Shown here in pieces: positions 8,519 to 51,156 of a DNA stretch of 51,156 nt. The stretch spans positions 667 through 51,822 of the forward strand of contig CAYFGW010000001.1 in the NCBI GenBank assembly GCA_964342365.1, given 5' to 3'. Within the stretch, counting starts at the first letter, position 1, and each line of letters begins with the position of its first letter. The notes beneath the pieces were generated by a model, which saw only the letters and a list, made by a program, of their open reading frames with translations, was not told where the DNA came from and searched no databases. Both the position numbers and the translations under genes were made by a program. Source of the stretch: an uncultured Candidatus Sericytochromatia bacterium (GTDB taxonomy: Bacteria; Cyanobacteriota; Sericytochromatia; UBA7694).

Positions 8519-9685
8519 TTAGTTGCCGTAAGCGGGAGCCGCTGCAGGGGCCTGAGGCTGAGGCTTGAGGCCGTCCATTAAAGCGATGGTTTTGCTCTTT
8601 ACCCAGTCTTTGGCACCGGTGCTGGTGAACAGTTTGTCGGTGAGCCAGCCACCCAACATGCCCGCGCCACCTACGAGTAAGGTGAGGCCGATGCCGCTAA
8701 CGGCGGTTCCTGCCAGAGCAGCCATGGCTGCACCACCGGCGATAGTGGCGCCGATGCCGGTAACACCACCGCTTACGGTGTCTGTTACTACATTAGAAAC
8801 CGCCTGGGTTTTCGTTTTTTCACCGCGCATATAGGCAATGCCGTTGGTGACTGCAGAGAATCCGCCGCTCACCAGAGCGGAGATGCCGGCACTCTTCAGC
8901 GTGGCTTTACCGATGCCTTTTAAAGCACCTACTACAGAACCGCTACCGTTTTTGATAGCACCCACGAGTTTGCTCACTTCGCTGGCGACGACTTTACCGT
9001 AGCGTACCTGACCCACGTTAGCGCCCACCCAGGGAGACTGAGCGGCCAGAGAATCGAGGAAGGTCATTTTAATTTCTGAGTTATTTTTGAAGCGACCCAG
9101 AACGTTCTGGTAGCGGGCTTCTTCTTCAGGGCTGGGCTTATAGCCATACTTCTGTACTTTTTCTTCTACAATCAGGGCCCACTCAATTTCAGACATGGTC
9201 ACTTGCTGACCCGCAGGAGGCATATTGGGGCCGAAAGGGTTGGGGCCCTGAGAACCCTGAGGAGCTTGCTGTACGGGAGCAGGTGCCGCGGTGGGCATCT
9301 GAATTTGAGGAAGTGCGGGAGCCTGACTCATGGGCTTGATGTTGTTTTTGAGCAGCATCAGCTGGGCACCCAGTGCGTCGTAGTATTCACGCTCCTGAGC
9401 GGTGGGCTGATAACCGTTTTGAATTTTGGCTTCCAATTCGGTGGCCCATTGTAAATCGGTGCGAGAAATATTCAGGGTGGTCAGGGTAGGTACAGAAGAG
9501 GTGGTAGGAGCGCTGAACTGTACTGCAGATACATTAGGAAGAGTGGTGGTAGGTTGGCTAACGCGAAGACTGTCAGGAGCAGAAACAGTGTTCGCAGAAA
9601 CCACTTGAGGGATGTTCAGTTGCGCAGGTGCTGGCAACTGAGGGGAAAACTGAGGGGTGGTGGCGGCAACAGCGTTTAAATTCAT
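8519..9685 (-). CDS. Hypothetical protein: P/Q/T/S-rich N-terminus, two ~37-aa repeats, Gly/Ala-zipper (MamC-like) C-terminal domain
   Basis: AAGGAG SD, own terminator, C-terminus paralogous to the genes at 49386-51156. Confidence 0.85.
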   Translation of the reverse strand: MNLNAVAATTPQFSPQLPAPAQLNIPQVVSANTVSAPDSLRVSQPTTTLPNVSAVQFSAPTTSSVPTLTTLNISRTDLQWATELEAKIQNGYQPTAQEREYYDALGAQLMLLKNNIKPMSQAPALPQIQMPTAAPAPVQQAPQGSQGPNPFGPNMPPAGQQVTMSEIEWALIVEEKVQKYGYKPSPEEEARYQNVLGRFKNNSEIKMTFLDSLAAQSPWVGANVGQVRYGKVVASEVSKLVGAIKNGSGSVVGALKGIGKATLKSAGISALVSGGFSAVTNGIAYMRGEKTKTQAVSNVVTDTVSGGVTGIGATIAGGAAMAALAGTAVSGIGLTLLVGGAGMLGGWLTDKLFTSTGAKDWVKSKTIALMDGLKPQPQAPAAAPAYGN

Positions 9686-9792
9686 TTTGTTTATGCTCCT
9701 TCTTCTGCATCAACCGTTTGTTGATATTACTATTATGCCCCACGGACTTTAAGAACTGACGTGTATGAGCATAAGGATTAAATAACAAATGT

Positions 9793-9846
9793 ATAAGCTT
9801 TGGTTAAGGGGTAGAGAGAGCGTTTTGTTTGTTAATTTTTGATTAA
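9793..9846. promoter_or_regulatory. Two TTAA-N7-TTAA-type boxes in a divergent promoter region
   Basis: ATAA-GCTTTGG-TTAA (9793-9807) and TTAA-TTTTTGA-TTAA (9832-9846). Confidence 0.45.
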
Positions 9847-9968
9847 ATGAACCCTTGTTTTTTTGTGAATTGTTTTTTTTATATTAAAGTAACTTGAGCA
9901 TTTTGCTAATTCGGGTCATAATATATAAGAACTAAAAAGAGTCAATAGATCACTTACGGAGGCAACCC

Positions 9969-10799
9969 ATGGGTCGCGGAGATTTTGGATTTGATGGATT
10001 ATATTCACTACAGGCAGTAAACCAATGGATTGGTGTAATCAATGCCAACCTGAATGCCGCTAACCGAACCGGGTACAAAGCCACCAAGGTGAAATTCAGA
10101 GGCGGTGTGGCCACTGTTGAACGTCGGCCTTTTGGGCCCCTGCTCGGGATTCAATCTCCTGAAACCACCCTGCAAATTGATGAAACCCAGTTAGATTTTT
10201 CGCAGGGTTCCATTGTAGCCTCTACCGAACCTACCCACCTGGCCATTCAGGGCGAAAACGTTTTCTTCAGACTGTCTACCACCATTGATGGTAACGGCGC
10301 TCCTGTGAACAACCCTGTTGATGCGGCATACTATACCCGTGACGGTGAATTTCACGTGATTAACGATGCGGGGAACCTGAGACTCGTACACAGTACCGGC
10401 ATGTATCTGGTGGCCAACGTGGGCGGTACGTTAGAGGGTGTAGAATTTGATGCCCAGAACGACCTGGTGATTATTGACGATAATGCTGCAGGTATTGCAG
10501 GCGCAGGCGTTGTGTTCAATGAAGAGCACCTGGAGGGTTTCAATGCCCCCAACTTCTTGCGCTTCAGCCGCTTTGGTTCCACGGTTTTTGAACAAGTAGG
10601 CGATCTGAACGATGCAGGGCCGTTTGCAGTACAGGCCGGTGCCGCACGGGTTGTGGCTCAGTCTCTGGAAAGTTCCAACAGTTCCCTGTCTCAGGCTTTA
10701 CCAGAACTTTCTCTGGCTCAGAAATTCTTTTCTTCTGTATCCAAAGTGATTTCTGTACACCAGACCAATCTGGATACCGTGATCAACCTGATTCGTTAA
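9969..10799 (+). CDS. Flagellar hook/basal-body rod family protein (FlgF/FlgG-sized), orphan
   Basis: INANLNAANRTGYK, DFSQGSI..HLAIQG, YTRDGEF, LESSN..AQKFFSSVSKVI..VINLIR. Confidence 0.85.
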   Translation: MGRGDFGFDGLYSLQAVNQWIGVINANLNAANRTGYKATKVKFRGGVATVERRPFGPLLGIQSPETTLQIDETQLDFSQGSIVASTEPTHLAIQGENVFFRLSTTIDGNGAPVNNPVDAAYYTRDGEFHVINDAGNLRLVHSTGMYLVANVGGTLEGVEFDAQNDLVIIDDNAAGIAGAGVVFNEEHLEGFNAPNFLRFSRFGSTVFEQVGDLNDAGPFAVQAGAARVVAQSLESSNSSLSQALPELSLAQKFFSSVSKVISVHQTNLDTVINLIR

Positions 10800-12880
10800 G
10801 TCTCCAAGGACACTTTCTTGCAAAACGCCAGCAGGGCTTCAGACCAGGTGGGATTATCAAAAAGTATTCCATTATGTTGCTGAATCTGCTGGCGTAGCTG
10901 TTTATTCCATGCTGTATCGTTGGCCAATCTTACGGCAATGGATACATACTCCTCTTTAGAAGCCGCTACCAGTCCCTTGATGTTCATGAGTTTATACATG
11001 GCCTGGGTCCAGCGGCTTTTATTATAGGGTAAATCCAGGGTCACAATGGGACATCCCAACCCCAACGCCTGATAAGCGGTATTTCCGCCACCAAAGTAGA
11101 AGCTGTCCAGTAACACATCCACGTTCTGAAGCCGTTGATAAAAAATATCCCGTTGAGACCAGTTTAAAAAGTGAATCCGATGATCGTCTTTGACGGTCTG
11201 TGTGAAACGCTTTTGAAGGGCCAGATGAATATCTGCTTTGTTTTTCAGGAACAAAACCTGAGCCGCCGGATCTTTTTCTAAAATACCGTTAACCACCTGA
11301 TCAAATAAAGGGTGTATTTTAAACAAAGTCATGGGACAAAAGTACAATTTTCCCTCAGGTAACCCCAGCTCCTGACGAGGCGCTTGTTTTTGCGGGGGGG
11401 CCGGTTTTTCGTAATCGGGCAAACCCGCCAGCGTGATCAGTTGTTCTGAATAATAGTCGGGGCCTTTTTCAGTTTCCAGCACGTTTGAAGATATAAAATA
11501 ATCCATGGTGTCCATTCCGGTAGTTACCGGATGGCCTGACATGGTCAACTGCACCTTTGCGGTTCGCTGTAGTGCCAGTTCATAGGTGACAATATCCATG
11601 CCCACATCGGTATACATTAAAATATCCAGATTATCGTTGGTCAGTTGTTGGAGAGCCAGAGGGTAAGAAAAAGGCAGTATACGAAAATGATTGGCCGCCG
11701 CTTTAAGCTCCTCAGGAATATCTTCCTCAGCAAAATCGGAAGTGTGGATGGCGTAAAGATAGGTTTCCAGTTCTGGATCTTGCAATACATGTATTAATGC
11801 CCTTTGCAGTAAATGCATGACCGAATGATTGCGCAAATGTCTGGAAACAATACCCACCCGACGCCGTGAGTTGGGTCTTAGCTGCGCGTTTAAATCAGGA
11901 ATGCCGAGACGATAAAAGCGGGACAGTTTTTTTTGCAGGGGCAAATCTTCCTGGTTTTGATAGCTGTGATAAAAGTTGATTTGCCGTGAAAAAGAGACGG
12001 ACTCCAGAGCAAGCTCCGGATGAGGTTTGCTAATTTCTTTGTCCAGAAAGTGATGAAGTTCTATCTGTAACCGCTCTAAATTCTCAAGAGACAGCGGAAC
12101 AGCTTCTTGTAAGCTAGACAACAGCGTTTTTACGGTGTCTCTTCCCTGGTCTCTTTCGTATAAAAGCAGCGCCCATTCAAGGGCCTTGGCGTAATGCTTA
12201 TGAGTCTGAAAAATATCAATCAGATAATCAAAGGTACGTAAATAAGATTTGTTATGAGAAAGTGCTTCTTTAAAATAATTGACCGCCATCTGATCGTTGT
12301 TGGTCAGGCTAAAATATAACCCCATGGCCGTCAGATAAAAAGGCGAGTCAGCAAACTCCTGCACTCGCTGACGCAGTAAAAGAGGGGTAGATTCGCTGTA
12401 CATGTGTTCTTGCAGCAATAAAAGTAAATGGTTCTGAATATTTCGGCGGGTGGGATCCAAATGGGCGGCCCGGGCCAGCATATCCAGCGCCTCTTCAAAT
12501 AAATGAAGAGCGGCGTAGGCCAGAGATACATTATAAAAACTGTCTGCGTCAGGTTTAAGACGTAACAATTGCTCAAACTGTGTTTTTGCGGCTTCTTTTT
12601 TACCCTGATAAAACAGGCTCATCGCCAGATTATTCACGTACTCGGCATGATCGGGAACCAGGGTGTGGGCCTGACGATAGCAGTCTTCGGCGGCGGTGAG
12701 TTGGTTCAAATTTTCCCGGGCAAAACCCAGAAAGTTTAAATAGGCAGCGCGGTGGGTTACGGGAGGTTCTTCATTGAGTAAATGATTCAGATAATCGGCG
12801 GCTGCTTGATACGCCTGCTGTTGAAAAAGAGCCTTAATGCGGGTTTGAACAGGTTCAGGAATCTTCTTCTGCTGCGGCAT
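10796..12880 (-). CDS. TPR + GT41 (OGT/SPINDLY-like) protein glycosyltransferase
   Basis: N-terminal TPRs; VGIVSRHLRNHSV, LDILMYTDVGMD, GHPVTTGM..MDYFIS, LFKIHP, DVLLDSFYFGGGNT..ALGLGCPIVT. Confidence 0.88.
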   Translation of the reverse strand: MPQQKKIPEPVQTRIKALFQQQAYQAAADYLNHLLNEEPPVTHRAAYLNFLGFARENLNQLTAAEDCYRQAHTLVPDHAEYVNNLAMSLFYQGKKEAAKTQFEQLLRLKPDADSFYNVSLAYAALHLFEEALDMLARAAHLDPTRRNIQNHLLLLLQEHMYSESTPLLLRQRVQEFADSPFYLTAMGLYFSLTNNDQMAVNYFKEALSHNKSYLRTFDYLIDIFQTHKHYAKALEWALLLYERDQGRDTVKTLLSSLQEAVPLSLENLERLQIELHHFLDKEISKPHPELALESVSFSRQINFYHSYQNQEDLPLQKKLSRFYRLGIPDLNAQLRPNSRRRVGIVSRHLRNHSVMHLLQRALIHVLQDPELETYLYAIHTSDFAEEDIPEELKAAANHFRILPFSYPLALQQLTNDNLDILMYTDVGMDIVTYELALQRTAKVQLTMSGHPVTTGMDTMDYFISSNVLETEKGPDYYSEQLITLAGLPDYEKPAPPQKQAPRQELGLPEGKLYFCPMTLFKIHPLFDQVVNGILEKDPAAQVLFLKNKADIHLALQKRFTQTVKDDHRIHFLNWSQRDIFYQRLQNVDVLLDSFYFGGGNTAYQALGLGCPIVTLDLPYNKSRWTQAMYKLMNIKGLVAASKEEYVSIAVRLANDTAWNKQLRQQIQQHNGILFDNPTWSEALLAFCKKVSLET

Positions 12881-13853
12881 GAAGGGCTTCGAGTCGTGCT
12901 TTCATATAGTTTAGAGCACCCTGAATATCTTTGTTTTCCGGCTCCACCAGCAGGGCTTGTTCTGCCAGAGTAATGCCTTTTTCAAATTCTCCCGTGTTGC
13001 TATACAAACCAATCAAAAGCTCATGGGCTTCTACCACATTGGGTTTGAGTTCAATCACTTTTTCAAAATAGGGAATCGCTTCGTCGAAGCGTTCCAATTC
13101 CATTAAGATCATGCCCCGGTGCAAATAGGTGGTGTCCTCATCGGGAATAAACTCCTGAAGTGATTCAAGCTCTCGCATGGAAATTAAATATTTGCCCTGA
13201 TGGTGATACGCGTCTGCTAAAGTGAGGCGAGCTTCCACAAATCCTGGCTCAAGCCGCAGAGCGTGTTGCAAATTAGAGATGCAGGGGTAGTAGGCGCGTA
13301 ATTCGCTGTAGGCCATGCCCAGCATGAAAAAGGCGTTGACATTCTGAGGATCTGCCAGAATGAGCGCTTCAAAAAGTTCTACCGCTTCCGTGTATTTCTT
13401 TTGCCCCACGTATACAAATCCCAGGCGAAAGCGGGCGTCAATATTATCGGGGTTTAAGTGAATGGCCTTCTGAAAAGACTCAGCAGCTTCGTCCAGTTGG
13501 CCCTGTTCCATCAGGGCGATGCCATCGCGCACGAACTCGTTCATGAATTCGGGGTCTGTGGTCAGAGCGTTATACACCGACTGTTTGAGGGTATTGATAG
13601 CCCGTCGGGCAATTTTGAGTAAACCAAATACGTTGTACAGGGGAGATAGCGGAGGGTGTAACTCAATAGCGCGCACCATCTCACCTTCTGCCTCCGCCAT
13701 GCGCTGTTGGCGAAACATCAGCATGCTCTGCCGCATGTGTTCGTAGGCAGCAACAGAAATCACGTCATTGTTTTTATCCCGACGAATACTTTCGTCGGGA
13801 ATATCCAGAGACAGTTCGGTTTCTATTTCGGGCAAAGAATTTTCTGTGGTCAT
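12855..13853 (-). CDS. Tetratricopeptide repeat protein
   Basis: Several tandem 34-aa TPRs; overlaps the GT41 start. Confidence 0.85.
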   Translation of the reverse strand: MTTENSLPEIETELSLDIPDESIRRDKNNDVISVAAYEHMRQSMLMFRQQRMAEAEGEMVRAIELHPPLSPLYNVFGLLKIARRAINTLKQSVYNALTTDPEFMNEFVRDGIALMEQGQLDEAAESFQKAIHLNPDNIDARFRLGFVYVGQKKYTEAVELFEALILADPQNVNAFFMLGMAYSELRAYYPCISNLQHALRLEPGFVEARLTLADAYHHQGKYLISMRELESLQEFIPDEDTTYLHRGMILMELERFDEAIPYFEKVIELKPNVVEAHELLIGLYSNTGEFEKGITLAEQALLVEPENKDIQGALNYMKARLEALHAAAEEDS

Positions 13854-13914
13854 TGACTCGTACTTGAAAAATTAGACTTGAAAAAAAAATGGGTATTCTT
13901 TATCATAGCATCAA

Positions 13915-14229
13915 ATGCAAAATAGTATGACCCCCGAAGCCTACCAGCGTTACCTCGATCGCATTCGTTACTGCAAAACCCTGGACGCGCTCCAGGAAAT
14001 TGTCTCAGCGGTTATAAAACCCACGGGATTTGGTGACAATCGTGTAGAAGGAGTGGACGTGGGGTTAAACTATTACGAAATGGCGATTTGTCTCAAAGAA
14101 ACCGACCAGATTTTCTTTCAAAAGTCTATTGAGCTGTTAATCTTTGCCCATCAGCAAATCGACATAATAGAAAGGGGACAGGTTCCCGAACCGCCGGAAA
14201 CTGTCCCCACCTGGCAAATGTTTACGTAA
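13915..14229 (+). CDS. Hypothetical protein
   Basis: Fills the gap; TTGAAA-17nt-TATCAT directly upstream (13878-13906). Confidence 0.65.
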   Translation: MQNSMTPEAYQRYLDRIRYCKTLDALQEIVSAVIKPTGFGDNRVEGVDVGLNYYEMAICLKETDQIFFQKSIELLIFAHQQIDIIERGQVPEPPETVPTWQMFT

Positions 14230-14232
14230 ATC

Positions 14233-15282: not shown

Positions 15283-15442
15283 AAAATCATACTCCTCTAC
15301 TACGCATGGCAACAAAAATCATTGCTATTAAACTTATTATAAGCTAAAAATAGACTTTTCTTACGTCAAAAGGTTAATTTTAGTTTATATATCCCCTAAA
15401 AAGTATTTAATTTTTCCTAAAAAAGAGGGGTGTCTAAGGCGT

Positions 15443-16358: not shown

Positions 16359-16361
16359 GCC

Positions 16362-23582: not shown

Positions 23583-24743
23583 TTACTCTAAATAATCTTT
23601 TAGGCGTTCAAAATTTTTTGTATTCACACTTTTTGACTGTAGAAAATTAATATCTTCTATTAAATTTTTCTTTTGTTCAGGAAAACGCTTTATGAATGAG
23701 TCAAGCAAGACCATTCCTTCTTTATCATTGCCATTTAGAACGAGTGCTAGAATCAAATTTGCCTCTATCCAATTCGAAGTAGGGTTTAAACTTAATCCTT
23801 TTCTTGAAAAGTTAACTGATTCACCATACTTTTTTTGCAAAATAGATATCCATCCCATATTTCCATACGCTTGAACATCTCTGGGATTTAATTTTACAAC
23901 TTGCTGATAATCACCTATAGCCTCTTTATATAGTTTCATACGATAATAAGCCTTGGCCCTGTTAAAATAAATTTTATCGTTTTCTGGACTGATAGAAATA
24001 GCCTTATCGTAGTCTAATAAAGCTTTTTTGTATTCCCTAAGATCTGTATAAACTGCAGCTCGATTATTGTAAGTTAGAGCAGATAAAGGCTCTAACTGAA
24101 TAGCTTTATCATAACTTGACAGAGCCAGGGTATATTTCTTTAGTTTGTGGTAAATGGCCCCTCTGACGTCATAATTATCAGCAGATTCAGGAGCCAGTTT
24201 AATGGCTTGTTCATAGTCTTTCAGAGCTTGCATATATTTTTCTAGAACATAAAAAAGCTTTCCTCTATTAGAATAAGCTAATGGAGAATTTGGATCTACT
24301 TCTATGGCCTTATTGTAATTAGAAAGAGCTTGTTCGTACTGACCCAAGTCTTGATACAGAATTCCTTTGCCAACATATGCTGTTGCAAATTTTGGACATA
24401 GTTCAATCACATGATTATAGTCAGAGAGAGCTTTTTTGTATTTACTTATTGTTTGATATAGGATTCCTCTATTAAGATGGGATTCTATTAATTTTTCATT
24501 CAACTGGATAGCTGAGCTGTATTCATCTATTGCCAATAAAACTTTATTGTTAACCTGGGCTTCAACTGCTTTATTGAAATGAATTTCGCCTTCTGTCTTT
24601 TTTGAGCTCTCAGAAGACACTGGTATTGCTACGTAAACTTGATCATCGCAATAATACTCCTGTGCTTTCACTAATTTACAGAAAAAAGAGTTAAACGAAA
24701 AAACTACTGTTATTGTGAATAAAAACCATAATATTTTCGGCAT
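23583..24743 (-). CDS. Exported TPR-repeat protein
   Basis: N-terminal hydrophobic signal; about 8 tandem TPRs. Confidence 0.88.
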   Translation of the reverse strand: MPKILWFLFTITVVFSFNSFFCKLVKAQEYYCDDQVYVAIPVSSESSKKTEGEIHFNKAVEAQVNNKVLLAIDEYSSAIQLNEKLIESHLNRGILYQTISKYKKALSDYNHVIELCPKFATAYVGKGILYQDLGQYEQALSNYNKAIEVDPNSPLAYSNRGKLFYVLEKYMQALKDYEQAIKLAPESADNYDVRGAIYHKLKKYTLALSSYDKAIQLEPLSALTYNNRAAVYTDLREYKKALLDYDKAISISPENDKIYFNRAKAYYRMKLYKEAIGDYQQVVKLNPRDVQAYGNMGWISILQKKYGESVNFSRKGLSLNPTSNWIEANLILALVLNGNDKEGMVLLDSFIKRFPEQKKNLIEDINFLQSKSVNTKNFERLKDYLE

Positions 24744-24978
24744 AATTTTCTAAAGATGTCGCTTCCTCAACTTTGAGTTACTTATCTTGATAATACTTGA
24801 TTGTTTTTCAATAGTAAAATAACAACGCCATAAATGACTTGTAAGCTGACCCGAAGGGGCATGATTTTGTTTGGGTTGATCTGCTGGTTGTGTGAATTAA
24901 AAGTTTTATACTACTGTAGTAACTGATTTATTTTGGGTGTTTTTATGAATTAATACGGCTTGTTTTGAGGTTAAAACG

Positions 24979-26229
24979 ATGTTTTTTAAAAAAATTGTGA
25001 TGATACCAATCCTTTTCACTGTTGTAGCCCTACCGTCTGTATCTGCTCTCTCAAATCCAATAAAGAAAGACCAAAGTGAAATCTTTAGCCTTGTCATAAA
25101 ACCGCCTGTGGAAGTGGGGAAAAATAATTTACAACCCAAAAGAACTCCCCCTCAAATAGCAATACTTCCGAATTTGATAAAAACAACGAAAATGAAAAGA
25201 CTCAACTCAACAGAGTTGGAAGAGATAGCTCAACTTTTAAAAGATGAAACTGCGCTTTCAAAGGGTATAAAAAGGAAAAACAATGTTAAACCTTTTGGGA
25301 GTAGTTCAAGATTACTTGTAGCTTCCTTTACGAGTGATAAAAATGAGATTGAAGGAGCTCATCATATTAGATTTGATGACGAAATTTTTGAAGTGTTTTT
25401 CAGAAAAGGCCCTGTTTATAGAGTATCAGGCCGTACGAATCACGATGATAAAGTAATAATTCAAATACCTTTTGATACCTTCAAAGTATATTTATTCTTT
25501 AAACCTAAGACTCTTGATGAAAAATTAGAAATAGAAGATTCCTTGTACCATGTATCGGATACATTAGGTAAAAACGATTTTTTCGTTTCTGACCAACATT
25601 TTCTCAATTTAGGTTTGCGCACCTTGCCTATTCCGAAAACGTGGAAGAATTCTAGTGGTAGCGATCTTAGAGTGGCATTTCGGTCTCGAAATGTATCTTC
25701 TTTTAAATTGCTTATTTTACGTGAAGAATCGAAACTTCCACTTCCGCCTCCGGGAATCAAAGAAATAGGGCCTGATGGTGGAACGCTAGAATTACCGGGT
25801 GTGGGCCGTGTTGAAATACCTGAGGGTGCTTTGGATAGAAAAGTAACTGTTCGCCTCAGTCAGAAAACTGTGTTCCTAAAAGTTATTGCTAGCGTAAGCG
25901 CTTTTGAAAGAATTCCAGCATATACTTATCACGACTATGTTAGCGCAATAATGAAAATCGAACCCATGGGTCAGAGACTGAAAAAAACTGCATTGGTGTA
26001 TCTTGATATAGACAAACAGCGGGTAGGTGCAAATAGTCCAGGTGTTGTTGATTGGGTTGTGTTCAATGAATATACTCCTTTAAACGAAATAGTTACTTCT
26101 GCCTACGCCAAACTTCCGAAAAAACACAGTGAGCCCCTGAAGATCACGAGTTTTTCTTATGTTACGAGAGTTATTGATGAAATGTATGGCCCTGACGATT
26201 CGTACGAAGTTGATCGTGTTGAGAGATAA
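24979..26229 (+). CDS. Exported hypothetical protein with C-terminal ZU5-like domain
   Basis: Signal peptide; IGPDGGTLELPGVGRVEIPEGALDRKVTVRL. Confidence 0.65.
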   Translation: MFFKKIVMIPILFTVVALPSVSALSNPIKKDQSEIFSLVIKPPVEVGKNNLQPKRTPPQIAILPNLIKTTKMKRLNSTELEEIAQLLKDETALSKGIKRKNNVKPFGSSSRLLVASFTSDKNEIEGAHHIRFDDEIFEVFFRKGPVYRVSGRTNHDDKVIIQIPFDTFKVYLFFKPKTLDEKLEIEDSLYHVSDTLGKNDFFVSDQHFLNLGLRTLPIPKTWKNSSGSDLRVAFRSRNVSSFKLLILREESKLPLPPPGIKEIGPDGGTLELPGVGRVEIPEGALDRKVTVRLSQKTVFLKVIASVSAFERIPAYTYHDYVSAIMKIEPMGQRLKKTALVYLDIDKQRVGANSPGVVDWVVFNEYTPLNEIVTSAYAKLPKKHSEPLKITSFSYVTRVIDEMYGPDDSYEVDRVER

Positions 26230-32811: not shown

Positions 32812-35019
32812 ATGACAGAGGAAGAGTTTGTTCCACCGGGCTTTATTTCCGAAGACGAGGAAATTATTGCCGACTTTATTGTGGAAGCCCGCGAATTCTT
32901 AGAACAGCTGGATCAGGACCTGGTGGATCTGGAGCAAGCTCCGGAAAATCTGGACTTGCTGGATAGTATTTTTCGCGCCGTGCACACCATCAAGGGCAAC
33001 TCTTCCTTTTTAGGCTTTGATAAGCTCACGCGCTTTACGCACCAGCTGGAAAATGTGCTGGATAAGTTGCGCAGCGGCCAGATGGCGGTGACCGCCGAAA
33101 TTATGGACCTGATTCTGGCGGGTACTGACAAAATTACCGAGCTGATTGACAATCTCAAAGATGAGTCGGTGGTAGACGTCAGTGCGGTGCTTGAAAAGCT
33201 AAACCACGTGCTGACGGCCTCTGAACAGCCCACGGTGGTGCACCATGACGATGATGATGACGAAATGGCTGAAATCATTGATGATTTTATTGTGGAATCC
33301 GGTGAGTTTTTAGAACAGCTGGACCAGGATTTGATCAATCTGGAACAATCCCCCGAAGATCTGGACTTGTTGAACGATATTTTCAGGCCCGTCCACACCA
33401 TTAAAGGCAATGCCTCTTTTCTGGGCTTTGAAAAACTGACCCACTTTACCCACCAGCTCGAAAATTTATTAGATAAATTGCGCAGCGGCGATATGCCTGT
33501 AGACACCCTGGTGATGGATCTGGTGCTGGACGGTGTGGATCGCATCAAGCTCTTACTTGAGAATTTGCGTCATGAAGACACCGTGGACACCAGCGATTTG
33601 CTCCTCCGCTTACAACAGCTGCTGGATCCCGATGCGGCTGTAACTGCCAGCGCTACTCCTGCAGCACCTTCTCCTTCTGCCTCTCCAGCGGTGGAGTCCG
33701 TAGCGGCTTCCGCTGAGCCCCCTTCAGAAACGCCGCCTCCGGTTGCTGCTCCCGTGCCCGTAAAAGCACCTGCTCCCCCCAAACCCAAACCCCCTCAAAA
33801 ATCGCGCCGCAAGGACAATGAAGAACAAACCATTCGCGTGGACGTAGAACGGTTGGATGCGTTAATGAATCTGGCGGGCGAACTGGTAATCGCCAAAAAC
33901 CGTTTGCAGCAGTTTAGCCAATTGTTTGACGAAATGCATGGCGATAGCGAACTCAACGAATCCCTGATGTTTACCCAGTCGCTGATTAGCTATATCACCG
34001 GACAATTCCAGGAAGCGGTCATGAAAACCCGCATGCTCCCCATTCGCAAGGTGTTCAGTAAAATACCGCGCCTGATTCGAGATTTGTCACGGGACACCAA
34101 AAAGCAGGTGGAGTTGACCGTTGAAGGGGAAGATACGGAACTGGATAAATCCGTGATTGAGTACATTGGCGATCCGCTGGTGCATATTATTCGTAACGCC
34201 GTGGATCACGGTCTTGAGTACCCCCATGAGCGGGAAGCCACGGGCAAAAATCCGCAGGGCCACGTATTGCTAAGGGCTTATTCTGAAGGCAACTATATTA
34301 TTATTGAAATCAAAGACGACGGCCGGGGCATGGACCCCATGAAAATTTTTAATAAGGCCGTGGAAAAAGGCCTGGTGCCCGCCGAAAAAGCCAACGTACT
34401 CAGCCCTGGCGAAATGCTCGACTTTATTTTTGCCCCCGGTTTTTCTACCGCTGAAAAAGTATCCAGCATTTCCGGGCGGGGCGTGGGCATGAATGTGGTC
34501 AAAGAAAACATCATGAAGCTCGACGGACTGATTGAAATCGACAGCGCCGTGGGACAGGGCACCGTATTCAAAATTCAGCTGCCGCTCACCATGGCCATTG
34601 TGCCCGCATTGATGGTGTCCGTGGCCAACGCCACCTACGCGATTCCTCTGAACAACGTGGGAGAAACTCTCGTGGTGGAGCCCAAAGATATTTACCATAT
34701 GGATCAGCGCCAGATGATTCATTTACGAGATCGCGTGGTCTCACTGGTGCACCTGAGCGAAATTCTGGGAGAACCCCCGGCCCCTGAACAGGACAAATAC
34801 TACGTGATTATTGTCGGTGTGGCTGAGCAGCGGGTGGGCCTGATCGTGGATCATTTGCAGGGCCAGGAAGAAGTGGTGATCAAAACCCTGGGCGAATTCT
34901 TTGAAGATATTCACCATATTGCCGGGGCGACCATTATGGGCGATGGTTCCGTCGTACTTATTTTGAACATTGGCAATGTCTTACAATACATCAATCGCAA
35001 ACCTGCCTTTACTGCCTGA
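32812..35019 (+). CDS. cheA: Chemotaxis kinase CheA with two HPt domains
   Basis: Two VHTIKG motifs; TIRVDVERLD; HIIRNAVDHG; DDGRG; GFSTA..SGRGVGM; C-terminal CheW-like domain. Confidence 0.94.
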   Translation: MTEEEFVPPGFISEDEEIIADFIVEAREFLEQLDQDLVDLEQAPENLDLLDSIFRAVHTIKGNSSFLGFDKLTRFTHQLENVLDKLRSGQMAVTAEIMDLILAGTDKITELIDNLKDESVVDVSAVLEKLNHVLTASEQPTVVHHDDDDDEMAEIIDDFIVESGEFLEQLDQDLINLEQSPEDLDLLNDIFRPVHTIKGNASFLGFEKLTHFTHQLENLLDKLRSGDMPVDTLVMDLVLDGVDRIKLLLENLRHEDTVDTSDLLLRLQQLLDPDAAVTASATPAAPSPSASPAVESVAASAEPPSETPPPVAAPVPVKAPAPPKPKPPQKSRRKDNEEQTIRVDVERLDALMNLAGELVIAKNRLQQFSQLFDEMHGDSELNESLMFTQSLISYITGQFQEAVMKTRMLPIRKVFSKIPRLIRDLSRDTKKQVELTVEGEDTELDKSVIEYIGDPLVHIIRNAVDHGLEYPHEREATGKNPQGHVLLRAYSEGNYIIIEIKDDGRGMDPMKIFNKAVEKGLVPAEKANVLSPGEMLDFIFAPGFSTAEKVSSISGRGVGMNVVKENIMKLDGLIEIDSAVGQGTVFKIQLPLTMAIVPALMVSVANATYAIPLNNVGETLVVEPKDIYHMDQRQMIHLRDRVVSLVHLSEILGEPPAPEQDKYYVIIVGVAEQRVGLIVDHLQGQEEVVIKTLGEFFEDIHHIAGATIMGDGSVVLILNIGNVLQYINRKPAFTA

Positions 35020-42725: not shown

Positions 42726-42730
42726 TGACC

Positions 42731-44816: not shown

Positions 44817-44956
44817 GGTTTTGCTTCTGTATTTTGATTTGCTAATGTTAGCATAACCTTTGTTAAGAAATAAATAAATTTTTATTCAAAGGGCAAGATC
44901 TCTGGCGTTTTGGGGTATATAGAAAATAGATTAAAGTTTCAGGTAGGTATATATTC

Positions 44957-45580
44957 ATGGGCGGTATTAACAATCTTCAAAGCGGAAACAGCTTCAAAGT
45001 GATCAAAAACGTTGCCCGCCCGTCTGCCGAAAAAGGCCTGACCCTCGGCGGAACCAATAGCCAGGTGGCAAAAAACAAGGCGGCCGAAAGAGAAATTGCC
45101 AAGGTTAAAAACACCTTTGACAGCCGCTATGCAGAAAATGAAAAAGTCGAGATTCTCATGGAGAGCGCCGAAGGCGTGGCGGTGATTCAAAGCCGTACCG
45201 ACAAGGGGCTGGATCTTCAAGAAATGGCTCAGGCCGGCGGCGCACTGGCTTCTTATGCACTGGAACTTAAAGCTTTTGATGCTGACGGCAACGGTTTTGT
45301 GAATGAAGACGAACTGTTTGAATCCTGGGGCGAACAACTGGGAGAATCCGCCATGACCATTGGCGGTGCTGCGGTAGCAGGCGCCGGTACAGGTGCCACT
45401 ATTGGGGGTATTGGCGGTACTGTGGTGCTTCCTGGAATCGGTACCGTGGCCGGTGCTGGCGGTGTAGGTGCCGTTGTGGGTGTGGCCGCAGGTGCTGGAG
45501 CCACTATCTGGGAAGGCGTTCAACTTATTGGCAAAGCCTTTTCAGACACCAACTACGAAGGTCCCAGCTGGGCTCGTTAA
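44957..45580 (+). CDS. Hypothetical protein with EF-hand loop and glycine zipper
   Basis: DADGNGFVNEDE, then GAAVAGAGTGATIGGIGGTVVLPGIGTVAGAGGVG. Confidence 0.8.
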   Translation: MGGINNLQSGNSFKVIKNVARPSAEKGLTLGGTNSQVAKNKAAEREIAKVKNTFDSRYAENEKVEILMESAEGVAVIQSRTDKGLDLQEMAQAGGALASYALELKAFDADGNGFVNEDELFESWGEQLGESAMTIGGAAVAGAGTGATIGGIGGTVVLPGIGTVAGAGGVGAVVGVAAGAGATIWEGVQLIGKAFSDTNYEGPSWAR

Positions 45581-45603
45581 TTAAAGCTTTTAAAAAGAAT
45601 CAC

Positions 45604-45634
45604 AAAGCGCTGCGAAACCTGTCGCGGCGCTTTT
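45604..45634 (+). terminator. Intrinsic terminator
   Basis: AAAGCGCTGCGA-N6-TCGCGGCGCTTTT. Confidence 0.8.
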
Positions 45635-45656
45635 ATTATTTGTTACACTGCGCTGT

Positions 45657-48089: not shown

Positions 48090-48202
48090 TTTTACTATTA
48101 TTTACCACGAACTTAACCTGAGCTAAAGAAAGTTTTAGGGTTTGCGTGCCATAATAATAGAGTAAGAGATTAAAGCGTTGAGAAAAAGAGGAGAAACAAA
48201 TT

Positions 48203-48835
48203 ATGCAAGTGAACAACAACCCCACTGCAAACCGCATCCAAAATGCACTGGCTCCCATTACCCAGGCAGCCAATAGCGTGAACACCGCCATGTACGGCGC
48301 TCCCCCTAGCAACCTGGGCACTGACAACTATGCCGCTACCACCGCTCGTGGTCCCGCAGCTCCTGCTCAAAAAGTACCCCTGTTTCAATTTTTTGACGAC
48401 ACCATGCGTCCTCCCCACCCCGTTAACTATAAAATTGCAAACCGCCTGAACATGGTCGGCATCAATGATTCTTCTGAATTCTTAAAAGTAGCCAACACCC
48501 CTTTCAAGCGTAAAATGGTTTCCTATCTGGCCGGGGGTCTGTTCCTCAATAAACAAGACCGTCAGTATGTGGATTATCAAATTGCCGCCTGGGCCGGTCA
48601 GGCTGACCTGATGCGTGCCGGTGCTGATTTACAAACCGCTCGCTTAGCACAGGTGAGTGGCGCTGGAGACGTTTCTATTATGTCTCGCTACCGTAACCCC
48701 GTAGACAAAGGCGTTCTTTACGCTGCTATGGCCGCTAACGCTCTGCAATACGGCTACCACATGCCTCCCTTTTCTCAGGTGTCTCAGCTGATTGACTCTG
48801 CTTCTCAGACCCCTCCCACCGTTCGCTGGAACTAA
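48203..48835 (+). CDS. DUF4332-like protein with low-complexity N-terminal extension
   Basis: ANRLNMVGI..FLKVANTPFKRK..WAGQADLMR..ARLAQVSG..RNP follows the DUF4332 pattern from memory. Confidence 0.6.
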   Translation: MQVNNNPTANRIQNALAPITQAANSVNTAMYGAPPSNLGTDNYAATTARGPAAPAQKVPLFQFFDDTMRPPHPVNYKIANRLNMVGINDSSEFLKVANTPFKRKMVSYLAGGLFLNKQDRQYVDYQIAAWAGQADLMRAGADLQTARLAQVSGAGDVSIMSRYRNPVDKGVLYAAMAANALQYGYHMPPFSQVSQLIDSASQTPPTVRWN

Positions 48836-48861
48836 AAATATATCTCTTATTCTCTCAACGC

Positions 48862-48885
48862 AACCCCGCAACATGCGGGGTTTTT
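48862..48885 (+). terminator. Intrinsic terminator
   Basis: AACCCCGCA-ACA-TGCGGGGTTTTT. Confidence 0.85.
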
Positions 48886-48982
48886 CTTCTGGGACATCCA
48901 GGTTTGCGAAAATTTTTGTATCGTCAAGTTCGTGAGATGGTATGATGCACACGCTGAATATTTTAAGTCATGGAGGAAAATA

Positions 48983-49312
48983 ATGGGATTTTTTAGTCGG
49001 TTATTTGGACAAGAAGAAGAAACCCCTCAGGAAGTACCTGCAGAGTATCAGGAAAAGGGGAGCACCATTCCTATTGAACGTCAGGGGCCAAATGGCGAAT
49101 ATGATCAGAGTGGTCTTGCTAAACGCGTGGCTATTGCCTTTGATAATCACCCCACGCTAGACGATGTAGAAACCCTCTGGGTGGCCCAGGCCGGAACAAA
49201 AATTGTGCTGAAGGGAACGGTGCCTGAAGAACTTATTTCGCGCATGATTTCTGTGGCGCGCCATGTAGAAGGTGTATCTGAAGTCGATAGCAGTGGTGTG
49301 ACAGCCGCATAA
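48983..49312 (+). CDS. BON-domain protein
   Basis: GGAGG SD; GEYDQSGLAKRV..LWVAQAGTKIVLKG..ARHVEGVSEVD. Confidence 0.8.
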   Translation: MGFFSRLFGQEEETPQEVPAEYQEKGSTIPIERQGPNGEYDQSGLAKRVAIAFDNHPTLDDVETLWVAQAGTKIVLKGTVPEELISRMISVARHVEGVSEVDSSGVTAA

Positions 49313-49338
49313 ATAAGACGTGTTTTGTTTCGTGCAAA

Positions 49339-49376
49339 ACGCCGCATAATCCTTATGTATTACGCGGCGTCTTTTT
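49339..49376. terminator. Hairpin terminator between convergent genes
   Basis: ACGCCGCATAAT-N8-ATTACGCGGCGT-CTTTTT. Confidence 0.7.
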
Positions 49377-49385
49377 ATATTTTAT

Positions 49386-49952
49386 TTAGAAGCCTTCGGT
49401 CATTTTGTTAGCGAGCATGCCGCCTGCCACACCGCCTGCTGCACCCGCAGCCGTAACAAGCACGGTGCCCATAACGCCCTTAACGGGGATAAAGCTGGCA
49501 ATGCCTGCTGCGCCCACGCCGGTCAGACCGCCCACGGCACCGCCGATACTGTCTTTAATAACGTTACTAACGGCTTCAGAACTGTCTACCTTACCGGTAG
49601 CAACACCCACACCGTTACCTACAGCAGATACACCCGCAGAAACCAGGGCGGAGAGTCCGGCACCTTTTAAGCCGGTGATGGCGGTGTTTTTAAGTCCGGT
49701 AACGCCGCCTTTGAGGCCGTTGCCGAAAATAGATTTCATATCAGCGTTCATTTTTGCGCCCAGTTTATAACCGGCGAAGCCCCCGCCAGCAGCATGAGAA
49801 GCCATGGAAGAAATAGAACTGAAGTCGGTAGAGAAACCGCTGCCTCCGGTATTTTGGTCATCAGCAACGACGAAGGAATTGCTGTAAGCAGAGTTGGAAG
49901 TGGCCTGTACAGGCATATAGGATTGAGTGGACTGAATAGCTAAGCTTGACAT
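49386..49952 (-). CDS. Gly/Ala-zipper (MamC-like) protein, S/T/Q-rich N-terminus
   Basis: LKGAGLSALVSAGVSAVGNG..GKVDSSEAVSNVIKDSIGG; AAGGA SD. Confidence 0.85.
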   Translation of the reverse strand: MSSLAIQSTQSYMPVQATSNSAYSNSFVVADDQNTGGSGFSTDFSSISSMASHAAGGGFAGYKLGAKMNADMKSIFGNGLKGGVTGLKNTAITGLKGAGLSALVSAGVSAVGNGVGVATGKVDSSEAVSNVIKDSIGGAVGGLTGVGAAGIASFIPVKGVMGTVLVTAAGAAGGVAGGMLANKMTEGF

Positions 49953-49975
49953 GATAATTTTTTCCTTCTTAATTT

Positions 49976-50716
49976 CTAGTAGCCGTAATACTGCTGAGGA
50001 GCATAGTAATTTTGTGTGGTGGCGTAATTATTATTGGTACCGCCCAGGGCATTGCTGACACCGGTGGCGACCTTATCTCTCAGGCCGCTGCCGTCAAAGA
50101 GAATATTGACGCCCGTTGCACCCAGAGCACCGGCTGCTGCTGCACCCACGGTGGAAATCAGATTGCCGCCGGGCAGAAGCATGGAAACGGCTCCAGCGGT
50201 TAAACCACCACCGGTACCTGCTAAAATACCGCCTACGGTATCGGCCGCCACGTTTCCGCCTGCGGCTGCATTGCTAATTTCACCACGCGAAGCGGCTGCA
50301 AAGTTTTTTACACCGGAAACCACACCCATGACACCGCCACCAATTAAGCCTGATTTCAGGCTGGCAGCGCCCAGGTTACGTAAACCAGCGCCAATGCCCT
50401 GTCCTTTGAAAGAACGAAGAGCGTCAGCGGTTTGTTGATGGGTAATGGCACCTGCGGCACCACCGGCCAGGAGAGATCCCACCAGACCGGCTTTGGGACC
50501 GCCCAGAGTGGCGGGCATGGGAGCCGGGTAGTAAGGAGCGGGTTGCTGCTGATAAGTATCGTCGGTGAAAACCGAGGCAATCTGGTTAGCAGCATGACCC
50601 ACAGCATCAATGGCTGGAATCATGGTTTCAGCGGCGCCTTGAACAGCTCCTAAATTTTGCTGCCAGGTGTTCATCGTATTAACGGCACCCTGTACGCCAT
50701 TTGCAAAGTTACCCAT
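49976..50716 (-). CDS. Gly/Ala-zipper (MamC-like) protein, Q/Y/P-rich termini
   Basis: AAGGAG SD; LKSGLIGG..SGVKN..RGEISNAAAGGNVAADTVGG. Confidence 0.85.
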   Translation of the reverse strand: MGNFANGVQGAVNTMNTWQQNLGAVQGAAETMIPAIDAVGHAANQIASVFTDDTYQQQPAPYYPAPMPATLGGPKAGLVGSLLAGGAAGAITHQQTADALRSFKGQGIGAGLRNLGAASLKSGLIGGGVMGVVSGVKNFAAASRGEISNAAAGGNVAADTVGGILAGTGGGLTAGAVSMLLPGGNLISTVGAAAAGALGATGVNILFDGSGLRDKVATGVSNALGGTNNNYATTQNYYAPQQYYGY

Positions 50717-50789
50717 TTTTTTTCTCCTTACGGTTCGGTGTCTTAATATATATATCGTTTGCACCTGTAAATAACTTACCTGATCAAAT

Positions 50790-50805
50790 TTAAGGCTGAA
50801 TTAAC
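50790..50805. promoter_or_regulatory. TTAA-N7-TTAAC box
   Basis: TTAA-GGCTGAA-TTAAC upstream of the 50716 gene. Confidence 0.45.
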
Positions 50806-50838
50806 TTATGAGAAAAAGCAGGTTAATTTTTAAAAGAG

Positions 50839-50868
50839 AAAAAACTCCACTCAATTGAGCGGAGTTTT
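50839..50868 (-). terminator. Intrinsic terminator of the partial 50945 gene
   Basis: Minus strand AAAACTCCGCTCA-AT-TGAGTGGAGTTTTTT. Confidence 0.75.
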
Positions 50869-50944
50869 GGAGTTATCGCCCGGCGAGGACAAAGCCAGCC
50901 GATAGCATATAATCTTGGGTCTAAGGGAGTTGGTCGAAGGGGAT

Positions 50945-51156
50945 TTAGAAGCCTTCGGTCATTTTGTTGGCGAGCATGCCGCCTGCTACACCGCCTGCTG
51001 CACCGGCAGCGGTCACGAGGATGGTGCCCATAACACCTTTAACAGGAATGAAGCTGGCGATACCGGCTGCAGTTACGCCGGTCAGACCGCCTACTGCACC
51101 ACCGATGGTGTCTTTTACTACATTGCTTACTGCTTCAGAGCTATCAACTTTACCGG
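50945..51156 (-). CDS. 3' end of a close paralogue of 49386..49952 (truncated by the window edge)
   Basis: Hand translation: GKVDSSEAVSNVVKDTIGGAVGGLTGVTAAGIASFIPVKGVMGTILVTAAGAAGGVAGGMLANKMTEGF*. Confidence 0.9.
   Translation of the reverse strand, partial: GKVDSSEAVSNVVKDTIGGAVGGLTGVTAAGIASFIPVKGVMGTILVTAAGAAGGVAGGMLANKMTEGF

Follow-up and report, generated by a model that had tools for sequence, protein, structure and literature searches.

A Gly/Ala-rich helical protein family with uncharged polar N-termini in the class Sericytochromatia

Results

A protein family found in every searched Sericytochromatia genome

Three open reading frames in a 51,156-nucleotide stretch of an uncultured Candidatus Sericytochromatia genome (the whole stretch is called the window below), together with a further copy cut by the window end, belong by sequence comparison to an undescribed protein family that is characteristic of the class Sericytochromatia. 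We see roughly an even chance that its members reside in the inner membrane as glycine-zipper proteins whose disordered tails lie in the cytoplasm, and that the six window genes considered here are neither a flagellar regulon nor exported. Sericytochromatia are an uncultured, non-photosynthetic sister class of the oxygenic cyanobacteria, and to our knowledge little has been learned of their cell biology.

The original prediction had grouped six window ORFs as one dispersed regulon of membrane-inserting proteins, lacking Sec signals and possibly exported by a flagellar or type III apparatus. All six ORFs proved genuine, with the coordinates and N-termini that had been quoted for them. As one family or one regulon they do not hold together; only P0001, P0005 and P0006 have a common domain. 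The family members in the window are:

P0001, 8519..9685, minus strand: 388 aa, polar uncharged N-terminus, C-terminal Gly/Ala helical domain (residues ~252-371)
P0005, 49386..49952, minus strand: 188 aa, short-form family member
P0006, 49976..50716, minus strand: 246 aa from ATG 50716, long-form family member
Third family member, 3' part, 50945..51156, minus strand: P0005-like copy cut by the window end

The common domain, whose paralogous copies were recognised with phmmer, jackhmmer and an alignment, comprises ~110 Gly/Ala-rich, helical residues and has no match in Pfam, NCBIfam or the PDB; a PDB sequence search with the family alignment (A2) likewise returned no relative. Five positions are invariant in the alignment (G120, D134, G138, G170 and G173), and the conserved inter-helix loop reads G-x-I/V-x4-A-x2-N-V-x2-D-T-V-G-G. 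In P0005, a disordered region (residues 1-43) is followed by a K-rich amphipathic region and then by three Gly/Ala hydrophobic helices. P0006 is located 23 nt upstream of P0005 on the same strand, and contig C106 has another such long-then-short pair. The ATG at 50716 (MGNF...) is taken as the best start of P0006 because the database copy is 246 aa long. The third copy runs into an N gap in the contig.

The host genome, a Candidatus Sericytochromatia MAG, holds 14 copies of the domain. Family members were found in all 47 Sericytochromatia genomes searched, with 1-18 matches each and often in tandem arrays; genomes of family f1 carry 9-18 copies each. Most copies lie among housekeeping genes. 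A search of 1.84 billion proteins yielded 336 representative clusters at E<=1e-3, and the named database matches are all "hypothetical protein", mostly from Sericytochromatia. In longer proteins of 467-735 aa with helical N-terminal parts, the domain is a C-terminal module that closes the protein; ten of ten such long forms match no Pfam family and lack toxin-delivery domains such as Rhs, PAAR or LXG. Cyanobacterial proteins of 336-361 aa, which differ in architecture, contain a distant homologue of the domain (hhalign probability 88.8%, E 2.5e-6, 85 columns); none of the five cyanobacterial genomes checked (99-100% complete) has a FHIPEP match. An HNH-like motif read by eye in these cyanobacterial homologues found no Pfam support and was set aside. 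Among the papers listed on Sericytochromatia and flagella, none deals with these proteins by title or abstract. A family that no searched genome of the class lacks, that reaches up to 18 copies and that lies outside Pfam, NCBIfam and the PDB is a lineage hallmark that merits a name and a function.

The other three flagged genes

The remaining flagged genes are:

P0002, 41699..42637, minus strand: 312 aa, helical, no known family, patchy accessory gene
P0003, 44957..45580, plus strand: 207 aa, polar N-terminus, weak EF-hand-like motif, Gly/Ala-rich hydrophobic tail
P0004, 48203..48835, plus strand: 210 aa, DUF4332-like domain after a polar N-terminus, no hydrophobic segment

Judged by sequence, P0002 is unrelated to the other five. 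It has no paralogue in the host genome and no PDB relative by sequence, and it is present in 4 of the 47 class genomes. P0003 and P0004 represent separate small families that sometimes adjoin members of the Gly/Ala family. P0003 is single-copy and occurs in 13 of the 47 genomes, all of family f1; its EF-hand_1 match scores 17.8 bits, under the cut-off of 25.4. P0004, present in 20 of the 47 genomes, scores 16.3 bits for DUF4332 (PF14229) against a cut-off of 23.2, and it matches its paralogue C227 at 1.9e-9. DUF4332 is called in its relatives, at 57.3 bits in C227 and 45.7 bits in a relative from genome G034. A PDB sequence search with P0004 gave chance-level matches only (E 0.11 or worse), and a literature search on DUF4332 returned nothing on these proteins. 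In G034, a protein of P0003-like design lies near a Gly/Ala family member and scores 20.1 bits for PF13441 (cut-off 28.9).

A rare and conserved N-terminal style

The polar N-termini on which the six genes had been grouped were assessed with a strict filter, in which residues 2-25 contain no D, E, K or R, at least 16 of these 24 residues are small or polar, and no hydrophobic stretch is present. Only 11 of 3936 crude ORF-called host proteins pass, and 5 of these 11 come from the flagged families. The proteins passing include P0001, P0005, the family member C77, a P0004 paralogue (C58), the WA-repeat protein C8 described below and FliK, which is a textbook flagellar export substrate. Among 247 family homologues, residues 2-20 are charge-free in 144, compared with 110 of 3936 proteins in the proteome, and the pattern M-x-[LIVMT]-x-[ASGTP]-[LIVMA] is found in 89 of the 247 homologues and in 140 of the 3936 proteins. 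By these counts the N-terminal style is genuine, rare and conserved. These N-termini are uncharged and polar, with no Sec or Tat signal and no hydrophobic stretch, a trait that is needed for a type III substrate and far from specific to one. The rod, hook and flagellin N-termini of the host genome are charged, unlike the flagged ones.

The claim that most of the six proteins end in Gly/Ala helices stands for P0001, P0003, P0005 and P0006. It fails for P0004, and P0002 is marginal: maximum Kyte-Doolittle means over 19 residues are 1.45-1.87 for the first four, 1.42 for P0002 and 0.48 for P0004. Pfam and NCBIfam searches with the six recovered no translocator, Rhs, PAAR or LXG domain.

A rod-like gene next to P0001

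One of the six genes had been said to have a promoter region in common with a rod-type gene, and this was borne out for P0001: the two genes are arranged head-to-head, 283 bp apart.

Intergenic region, 9686..9968, no strand assigned: 283 bp, AT-rich, between head-to-head P0001 and the rod-like gene
Rod-like gene, 9969..10799, plus strand: 276 aa, divergent FlgE/F/G-like (rod/hook-type) orphan

The intergenic region contains sigma-70-like sites on both strands. With hmmscan, the rod-like protein stays just under the cut-offs, reaching 24.5 of 27 bits for PF22692 (D1 domain) and 22.3 of 23 bits for PF06429 (C-terminal Flg_bbr_C); in the genome scan its PF06429 score is 25.8 bits, above the cut-off of 23. 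By eye it has an N-terminal 'INANLNAANRTGYK' segment, a type of motif that we take to be typical of the FlgE/F/G family. The pairing is kept at 9 loci in 4 genera, where the P0001 orthologues are 60-83% identical. This synteny was seen in a single taxonomic family, and no rod-like gene was found within 1.5 kb of the P0001-like genes of family f2. A second orphan rod-like gene in the host genome (C57) is partnered by what appears by eye to be a MurJ-like flippase and not by a Gly/Ala family member.

P0001 also contains two copies of a ~35-aa repeat, WA..LE.K...GYQPT..E..RY. In its WA-repeat paralogue C8, a protein of 765 aa without a signal peptide, PG_binding_1 is called at 25.3 bits against a cut-off of 23. 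This suggests that the WA repeats act outside the cytoplasm.

Terminators, promoters and upstream motifs

Three terminator-like hairpins lie close to flagged genes:

Hairpin after P0003, 45604..45633, plus strand: 12 pairs, then a T-rich tail
Hairpin after P0004, 48862..48882, plus strand: 9 pairs
Hairpin upstream of P0006 and after the third family copy, 50841..50868, minus strand: 12 pairs

Of the terminators attributed to several of the genes, those of P0003 and P0004 were recovered and a site was also seen upstream of P0006, but no such site was seen for either P0001 or P0005. The region contains 15 strong hairpin-plus-T sites, compared with 11.6 +/- 3.2 in shuffles.

Upstream motifs had also been described as common to the six genes. 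TTAACC is present in 6 of 11 family upstream regions and 209 of 3877 background regions, and TAAGCAA in 5 of 11 and 51 of 3877, respectively; the enrichment exists but is weak, and it is overstated because the background includes intra-operon upstream regions. The 7-mer GCAAGAT, considered as a common promoter element, was rejected, because it precedes 60 of 3936 genes and these are of every kind.

A sigma-28-like motif, AAGTTT-N13-CCGATAA, precedes the FlgM-like gene, flgB and others in the host genome. It is absent upstream of all six window genes (ranks 299-3165 of 3929) and of the other core family members (ranks 270-2791); their scores range from -1.2 to 7.6, with the 99th percentile at 13.2. 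Two WA-repeat genes, C214 and C253, lie behind the same promoter as the FlgM-like gene and flgB, and in C165 and C287, likewise part of the candidate sigma-28-like regulon, a polar N-terminus is combined with a Gly/Ala tail.

Flagellar-type export genes in the genome and the class

A flagellar-type export apparatus had been supposed to be encoded outside the window, and two complete sets are indeed present in the host genome. There are two copies each of FlhA, FliP and FliF, 12 rod/hook-type C-termini and 3 flagellin-N matches; because both sets are complete, export is not undone by a lack of export genes. As had been stated, the window itself holds no export gene; CheA is present at 32812-35019.

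Two full-length FlhA copies are found in most of the 47 class genomes. FlhA is present in 45 of them, the two FlhA-less genomes being 87% complete, and the Gly/Ala family is present in all 47. Co-occurrence cannot decide on export, since these counts leave no contrast within the class.

None of the loci examined has a Gly/Ala family member inside a flagellar operon. A cluster in G034 places a family member, a DUF4332-like gene and an EF-hand/Gly-zipper gene no more than 12 kb from FliF-FliG and FlhA. In the host genome, an unrelated Gly/Ala-repeat protein with a polar N-terminus directly follows flgF, flgG and a 126-aa gene that by eye is FlgJ-like (C139). Linkage of a family member to FlhA on a single contig, considered for G019 and G017, was discounted, with housekeeping genes (pseudouridine synthase, RNase E/G, histidine kinase) lying between.

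Membrane topology and the favored explanation

Across 121 sequences, the hydrophobic helices are nearly uncharged (mean K+R 0.17, 0.55 and 0.39; D+E about 0), while the segment before helix 1 contains 5.4 K+R (net +4.2), the N-terminal tail has a net charge of -2.2 and loop 1 of -0.7. The positive-inside rule predicts such a pattern for membrane proteins of N-in type, and the charges agree with a normal N-in topology in the inner membrane, an assignment based on that rule and not on a trained predictor. The AlphaFold2 model of P0005 has a disordered region (residues 1-43) and then four helices, and is poor (pLDDT 55.9). All matches in a structure search of the ESM Atlas were generic bundles of membrane helices, at TM-scores no higher than 0.50. 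Complex prediction for P0006 with P0005 (score 0.00, mark 0.32) speaks neither for nor against binding.

In the reading that we favor, a disordered, uncharged N-terminal tail rich in S/T/N/Q/P/Y would lead into a lysine-rich amphipathic segment and then into about three bundled, Gly/Ala-rich "glycine-zipper" transmembrane helices that the conserved loop connects. The internal hydrophobic helices would serve as signal anchors for ordinary SRP/YidC/Sec insertion, so that an N-terminal signal peptide would not be needed, and the tail and K-rich segment would stay in the cytoplasm. Small-residue helices may then pack into homo- or hetero-oligomers, as the conservation of long-plus-short gene pairs suggests, and these would build a channel-like or scaffolding assembly. 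The variable tails, with their recurrent YNPY and FSTDFxSISSM motifs, would recruit partners. If the proteins are inner-membrane glycine-zipper oligomers, they represent a new family of small membrane proteins. Helix hydrophobicity is marginal for this reading (1.45-1.87), and an inert cytoplasmic tail leaves unexplained why the N-terminal style is conserved in very divergent members.

The family, perhaps with P0003 and P0004, might instead comprise non-flagellar substrates of one of the two flagellar-type III export systems, the uncharged polar N-terminus acting as the signal and the marginally hydrophobic glycine-zipper helices inserting after export, with an outer, periplasm-facing or foreign membrane as the target. 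We consider this unlikely. It would account for several observations that also weigh against residence in the inner membrane: the rare N-terminal type is common to FliK and conserved over 247 homologues, the P0001/rod-like pairing recurs in 9 loci across 4 genera, the WA repeats of P0001 are common to a peptidoglycan-binding relative without a signal peptide, and two further WA-repeat proteins are encoded behind a sigma-28-like promoter. The two complete export sets, the dual FlhA of most class genomes and the presence of C165 and C287 in the candidate sigma-28-like regulon point the same way. There is also precedent: PMC5223770 and PMC2764114 document export of non-flagellar proteins by the flagellar T3SS of Campylobacter jejuni, and PMC7688988 proposes the same for a non-flagellated Lysobacter. 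However, neither the six window genes nor the core family members have a sigma-28-like promoter, the loci examined show no member inside a flagellar operon, no chaperone-like partner was found, and the rod, hook and flagellin N-termini are charged and look different. The charge pattern fits inner-membrane residence, the distant homologue occurs in cyanobacterial genomes without FHIPEP, and class-wide co-occurrence is uninformative. It is likewise doubtful that Sericytochromatia use at least one of their two class-wide flagellar-type machines as a general secretion route for proteins with charge-free polar N-termini, among which would be the glycine-zipper family, WA-repeat and peptidoglycan-binding proteins and a papain/C39-like protein of the sigma-28-like regulon. 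If export by one of the two conserved flagellar systems were true, this free-living lineage would have a large non-flagellar secretome, and a sequence-defined export signal would be available for testing.

Two further explanations leave type III export aside. The proteins could be accessory components of the flagellar or cell-envelope machinery that reside in the inner membrane, such as basal-body-associated scaffolds or ion-conducting partners, that are tied to motility and not exported. This fits the conserved head-to-head pair of P0001 and the FlgF/G-like gene, the G034 cluster near FliF-FliG and FlhA, the position of the Gly/Ala-repeat protein directly after flgF, flgG and the FlgJ-like gene, and the universality of both the family and dual flagellar sets in the class; it is made improbable by the missing flagellar promoter, the housekeeping surroundings of most copies, a copy number (9-18 in each f1 genome) that is uncommon for a structural part of the flagellum, and a synteny that was seen in one taxonomic family and not within 1.5 kb of the f2 genes. 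It is very unlikely that the proteins are bacteriocin-like or contact-dependent toxins that are released by another route and kill competitors or prey through glycine-zipper pores. Bacteriocins are commonly marked by a double-glycine leader, a nearby ABC exporter or C39 peptidase and a small immunity gene, and by eye the window shows no such leader, no adjacent ABC exporter or C39 peptidase and no small immunity-like gene. Like core genes, the orthologues stay in place across genera and are 60-83% identical, the family is present in every class genome searched, and the long forms have no toxin-delivery domain. Multi-copy genes, tandem arrays and diversified N-terminal parts would nevertheless suit a toxin, as would the use of glycine-zipper helices by membrane-active effectors of other secretion systems, described in PMC10240207 and PMC12955049.

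Comparison with known systems

The lack of a Sec signal and the disordered polar N-terminus are features in common with the Cia/Fed proteins of Campylobacter, type III translocators and EspZ; in translocators and EspZ, hydrophobic or glycine-zipper helices enter a membrane after export (PMC2764114, PMC5223770 and PMC13689184). Unlike in those systems, export here is putative; the window genes have no sequence relationship to them, and neither a flagellar promoter nor a chaperone gene was found for these genes. Glycine-zipper motifs also take part in the membrane interaction of the T6SS and T7SS effectors Tde1, in an N-terminal motif, and LXG-T2 (PMC10240207 and PMC12955049), but the present proteins have no delivery domains, and with 9.6 bits the NCBIfam model of the T6SS effector BTH_I2691 stays far under its cut-off of 150.

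Gly-rich multi-helix membrane segments are also known from Tim17/Tim22/Tim23 (PF02466). P0001 residues 250-325 align weakly with this family at 14.8 bits, which is far under the cut-off of 32.7 and probably compositional, and P0005 and P0006 do not match. Closer in general design are Gly-zipper_Omp (PF13488), Gly-zipper_YMGG (PF13441) and magnetosome MamC, which are small proteins with membrane helices built of Gly/Ala/Ser repeats. ESM Atlas feature-neighbour clusters contain MamC (17% of members, score 0.83) and Gly-zipper_Omp (19%, score 0.79), which we treat as leads only. At E<=1, P0001, P0005 and P0006 do not match PF13488, PF13441 or PF05433. Compared with the Pfam glycine-zipper families, the conserved loop motif and the long uncharged N-terminal tail are specific to the Sericytochromatia family.

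The six genes

All six ORFs named in the original prediction, which saw in them a candidate regulon of possibly flagellar/type III-exported membrane-inserting proteins, are present, and their translations match those quoted. In Pfam and NCBIfam, no match of the six proteins (P0001 to P0006, in order of position) scores above the curated cut-off. The set falls into four groups: P0001, P0005 and P0006 are paralogues sharing a C-terminal domain (hereafter the family), and P0002, P0003 and P0004 are each separate.

8519-9685: P0001, C-terminal Gly/Ala/Ser-rich helical domain of ~110 residues
49386-49952: P0005, same ~110-residue C-terminal domain
49976-50716: P0006, same ~110-residue C-terminal domain
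50945-51156: fourth family copy, cut, same C-terminal domain

P0006 and P0005 lie 23 nt apart in one orientation, and the same order of long and short gene is found again on contig C106. A run of N at ~51820-51922 of the host contig C1, just beyond the window end, breaks the third family copy of the right-end array; this tandem array is therefore incompletely assembled. P0004, which lacks a hydrophobic segment, is predicted to be a DUF4332-like protein (16.3 bits; 57.3 bits for its paralogue on C227). P0003 is a single-copy gene whose product combines an EF-hand motif below threshold with a Gly/Ala tail. P0002 has no relative elsewhere in the host genome, was found in only four class genomes out of 47 and is absent from a congener (G037, 92% complete).

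A class-wide family with a glycine-rich domain

The shared domain defines a genuine, unnamed, class-wide protein family. A word-indexed search with the domain profile recovered 125 proteins, all annotated 'hypothetical' and none with a Pfam domain; the named ones belong to Sericytochromatia, plus one labelled Obscuribacterales. An exhaustive search with the same profile gave 336 representative clusters at E<=1e-3. The domain is found in 47/47 class genomes, with 1-18 matches per genome (14 in the host) and as many as six copies side by side in an array. Across a phylum sample it was detected in 54 of 301 genomes, and outside the class in only 7 of 254, with a single weak match each. The out-of-class matches (five examined, three read) are 336-361-aa cyanobacterial proteins with the hairpin and loop motif mid-protein, and align to the family domain with an hhalign probability of 88.8% (E 2.5e-6). 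These homologues (L140-L144, in genomes G079, G159, G099, G233 and G065) are conserved and carry, by eye, an HNH-like motif (H-x-x-P-x-S-K-G-G...N) before the hairpin, where Pfam gives no match. Long forms of 467-735 aa have the domain at the C-terminus, behind helical, Ala/Lys-rich N-parts without a Pfam family.

A conserved loop connects the helices of the domain, and G120, D134, G138, G170 and G173 (P0005 numbering) are invariant in 11 paralogues. The hydrophobic helices are marginal by Kyte-Doolittle (1.45-1.87). Among 121 family sequences they are nearly charge-free (mean K+R 0.17, 0.55 and 0.39; D+E ~0), the ~57 residues preceding helix 1 hold 5.4 K+R (net +4.2), and the N-tail and loop 1 have net charges of -2.2 and -0.7. 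By the positive-inside rule, the family would consist of N-in membrane proteins with about three spans. For P0005, AlphaFold2 gave a low-confidence model (pLDDT 55.9) in which residues 1-43 are disordered and four helices follow, and the Atlas model resembled generic membrane helix bundles only.

Polar N-termini and the WA repeat

The unusual polar N-termini claimed for these proteins are indeed beyond chance. A strict filter (residues 2-25 without charge, 16 or more of these 24 small or polar, no hydrophobic stretch) was passed by 11 of 3936 ORF-called host proteins, five of them from the window-gene families and one a FliK (Flg_hook 30.8 bits, cut-off 29.8). Residues 2-20 are charge-free in 144 of 247 full-length public homologues vs 110/3936 host proteins, and M-x-[LIVMT]-x-[ASGTP]-[LIVMA] is matched by 89/247 vs 140/3936, the background figures being approximate because gene calls were crude longest-ORF calls.

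A ~35-residue repeat, 'WA..LE.K...GYQPT..E..RY..I', is present twice in P0001; it has no Pfam family and recurs in five other host proteins, on contigs C8 (765 aa), C214 (658 aa), C148, C88 and C253. The C8 protein matches PG_binding_1 (25.3 bits, cut-off 23); it is encoded at 6001-8298 (-) of locus L097 and has ~12 WA repeats and no signal peptide.

Flagellar export genes and neighbourhoods

The original prediction depends on flagellar/type III export genes in the genome, and these are present: FlhA, FliP and FliF each occur twice, both FlhA being full length (899.5 and 844 bits), together with 12 rod/hook-type C-termini and three flagellin-N matches. Most of the 47 class genomes have two full-length FlhA copies. 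FlhA was detected in 45 of the 47 (the other two are 87% complete) and the family in all, so co-occurrence within the class cannot discriminate. No FHIPEP match was obtained in the five cyanobacterial genomes with a distant homologue, which are 99-100% complete.

The two full host sets of export genes lie on contigs C96, C75, C78, C59 and C221. On C75 the order is FlgI, rod-binding protein, sigma-70-family factor (233 aa), unassigned 196-aa ORF, FlgC, FliE, FliF-FliG_M fusion, FlhA. Such apparent FliF-FliG fusions, FliF with a C-terminal FliG middle-domain match, are seen at L139 (4662-6617, +) and L135 (16878-18872, -), and FlhA directly follows one in the host and in G034. Class genomes also encode many shorter proteins whose match to FlhA is confined to its cytoplasmic C-terminal half, with as many as 12 FHIPEP matches in a single genome. 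In the host, a 367-aa protein at 1027-2130 (+) of L003 (contig C285) matches the cytoplasmic domain of FlhA, has a helix-turn-helix-like N-terminus by eye and adjoins a 314-aa ORF that looks tyrosine recombinase-like. At L151 (host contig C139, 8585-9511, +), directly downstream of flgF, flgG and a 126-aa gene FlgJ-like by eye, lies a gene whose 308-aa product combines a polar N-terminus with four Gly/Ala-rich repeats; this product had no Pfam match and was not recovered by the family profile.

P0001 lies head-to-head with a divergent FlgE/F/G-like gene (9969-10799), and this pair recurs in nine loci of four genera of the host's family, with 60-83% identity for P0001 and 65-83% for the rod-like gene. 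In the neighbouring taxonomic family f2, no rod-like gene was seen up to 1.5 kb away from P0001-like genes; by coordinate comparison, a DUF4332-like gene directly adjoins a family member in 6/6 f2 genomes. In G034 no more than 5 kb separates an EF-hand/Gly-zipper gene, a DUF4332 gene and a family member from one another, and FliF-FliG and FlhA are at most 12 kb away; in G019 housekeeping genes fill the interval between family member and FlhA. Thus P0004-type and P0003-type genes are loosely tied to the family, and P0001 is tied to one orphan axial-protein gene; none of these links puts the family inside a flagellar operon.

Convergent to the rod-like gene are genes for a TPR and glycosyltransferase-41 protein (694 aa) and a TPR protein (332 aa), at 10796-13853 (-). 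Flagellins are modified by TPR-glycosyltransferases in some bacteria.

Promoters

A sigma-28-like motif derived in the host genome, AAGTTT-N13-CCGATAA, stands in strict form 39-71 nt upstream of the start codon in 11 genes, among them FlgM-like (by eye) and FlgB genes, WA-repeat genes on C214 and C253, Gly/Ala-tailed genes on C165 and C287, and a weakly C39-like gene on C24. Counting both strands of the whole genome gives 51 sites of the strict pattern, of which 13 fall no more than 200 nt upstream of a gene. Contigs with motif-bearing genes are C225, C54, C214, C253, C165, C287, C24, C81 and C169, and most products have polar N-termini without a signal peptide. With a weight matrix from 10 sites, the six window genes rank 299-3165 among 3929 genes and other core family members 270-2791, with scores of -1.2 to 7.6 vs a 99th percentile of 13.2. 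The window genes therefore fall outside the candidate sigma-28-like flagellar regulon. The upstream motifs said to be shared are real, as TTAACC (6/11 family genes vs 209/3877 background) and TAAGCAA (5/11 vs 51/3877) are enriched, but they are weak and define no specific set.

Export or ordinary insertion

The observation behind the original prediction was largely right, and an export apparatus exists; the interpretation as an exported regulon has partial support only. The FliK-like N-termini and the rod-like neighbour of P0001 are circumstantial points for true flagellar export substrates, as is the WA-repeat relative that has a peptidoglycan-binding domain, lacks a signal peptide and has paralogues behind an FlgM-type promoter. 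However, the window genes have no flagellar promoter and lie outside flagellar operons, charges are distributed as in a resident inner-membrane protein, and a homologous hairpin occurs in FlhA-free genomes, so that we consider export unlikely. Because these four tests point away from it, we favour, at about even odds, insertion by the ordinary route as resident inner-membrane proteins. That the proteins are inner-membrane but flagellum-associated seems improbable, and that they are bacteriocin-like toxins very improbable. No published work on them was found in the literature on Sericytochromatia flagella and DUF4332.

Host genome and remaining genes

The host MAG comprises 4.79 Mb in 413 contigs (completeness 90%, contamination 3.3%), and the window spans 667-51822 of its contig C1. 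Host SmpB shares 89% and 75% identity with those of two Candidatus Sericytochromatia MAGs and at most 63% with others among the matches listed, which places the host in the non-photosynthetic cyanobacterial sister class. The remaining window genes are ordinary housekeeping: acyltransferase, CoaBC, acyl-CoA dehydrogenase, Mrp/Nuo-type antiporter subunit, NDH-2, SLH protein, UDG, CheA, two SDRs, prolyl oligopeptidase, M23 peptidase, SmpB and PriA. A 416-aa ORF without a Pfam family (24979-26229) lies in a low-GC region, with a GC content of 0.351 at 24001-26000 vs ~0.49 elsewhere.
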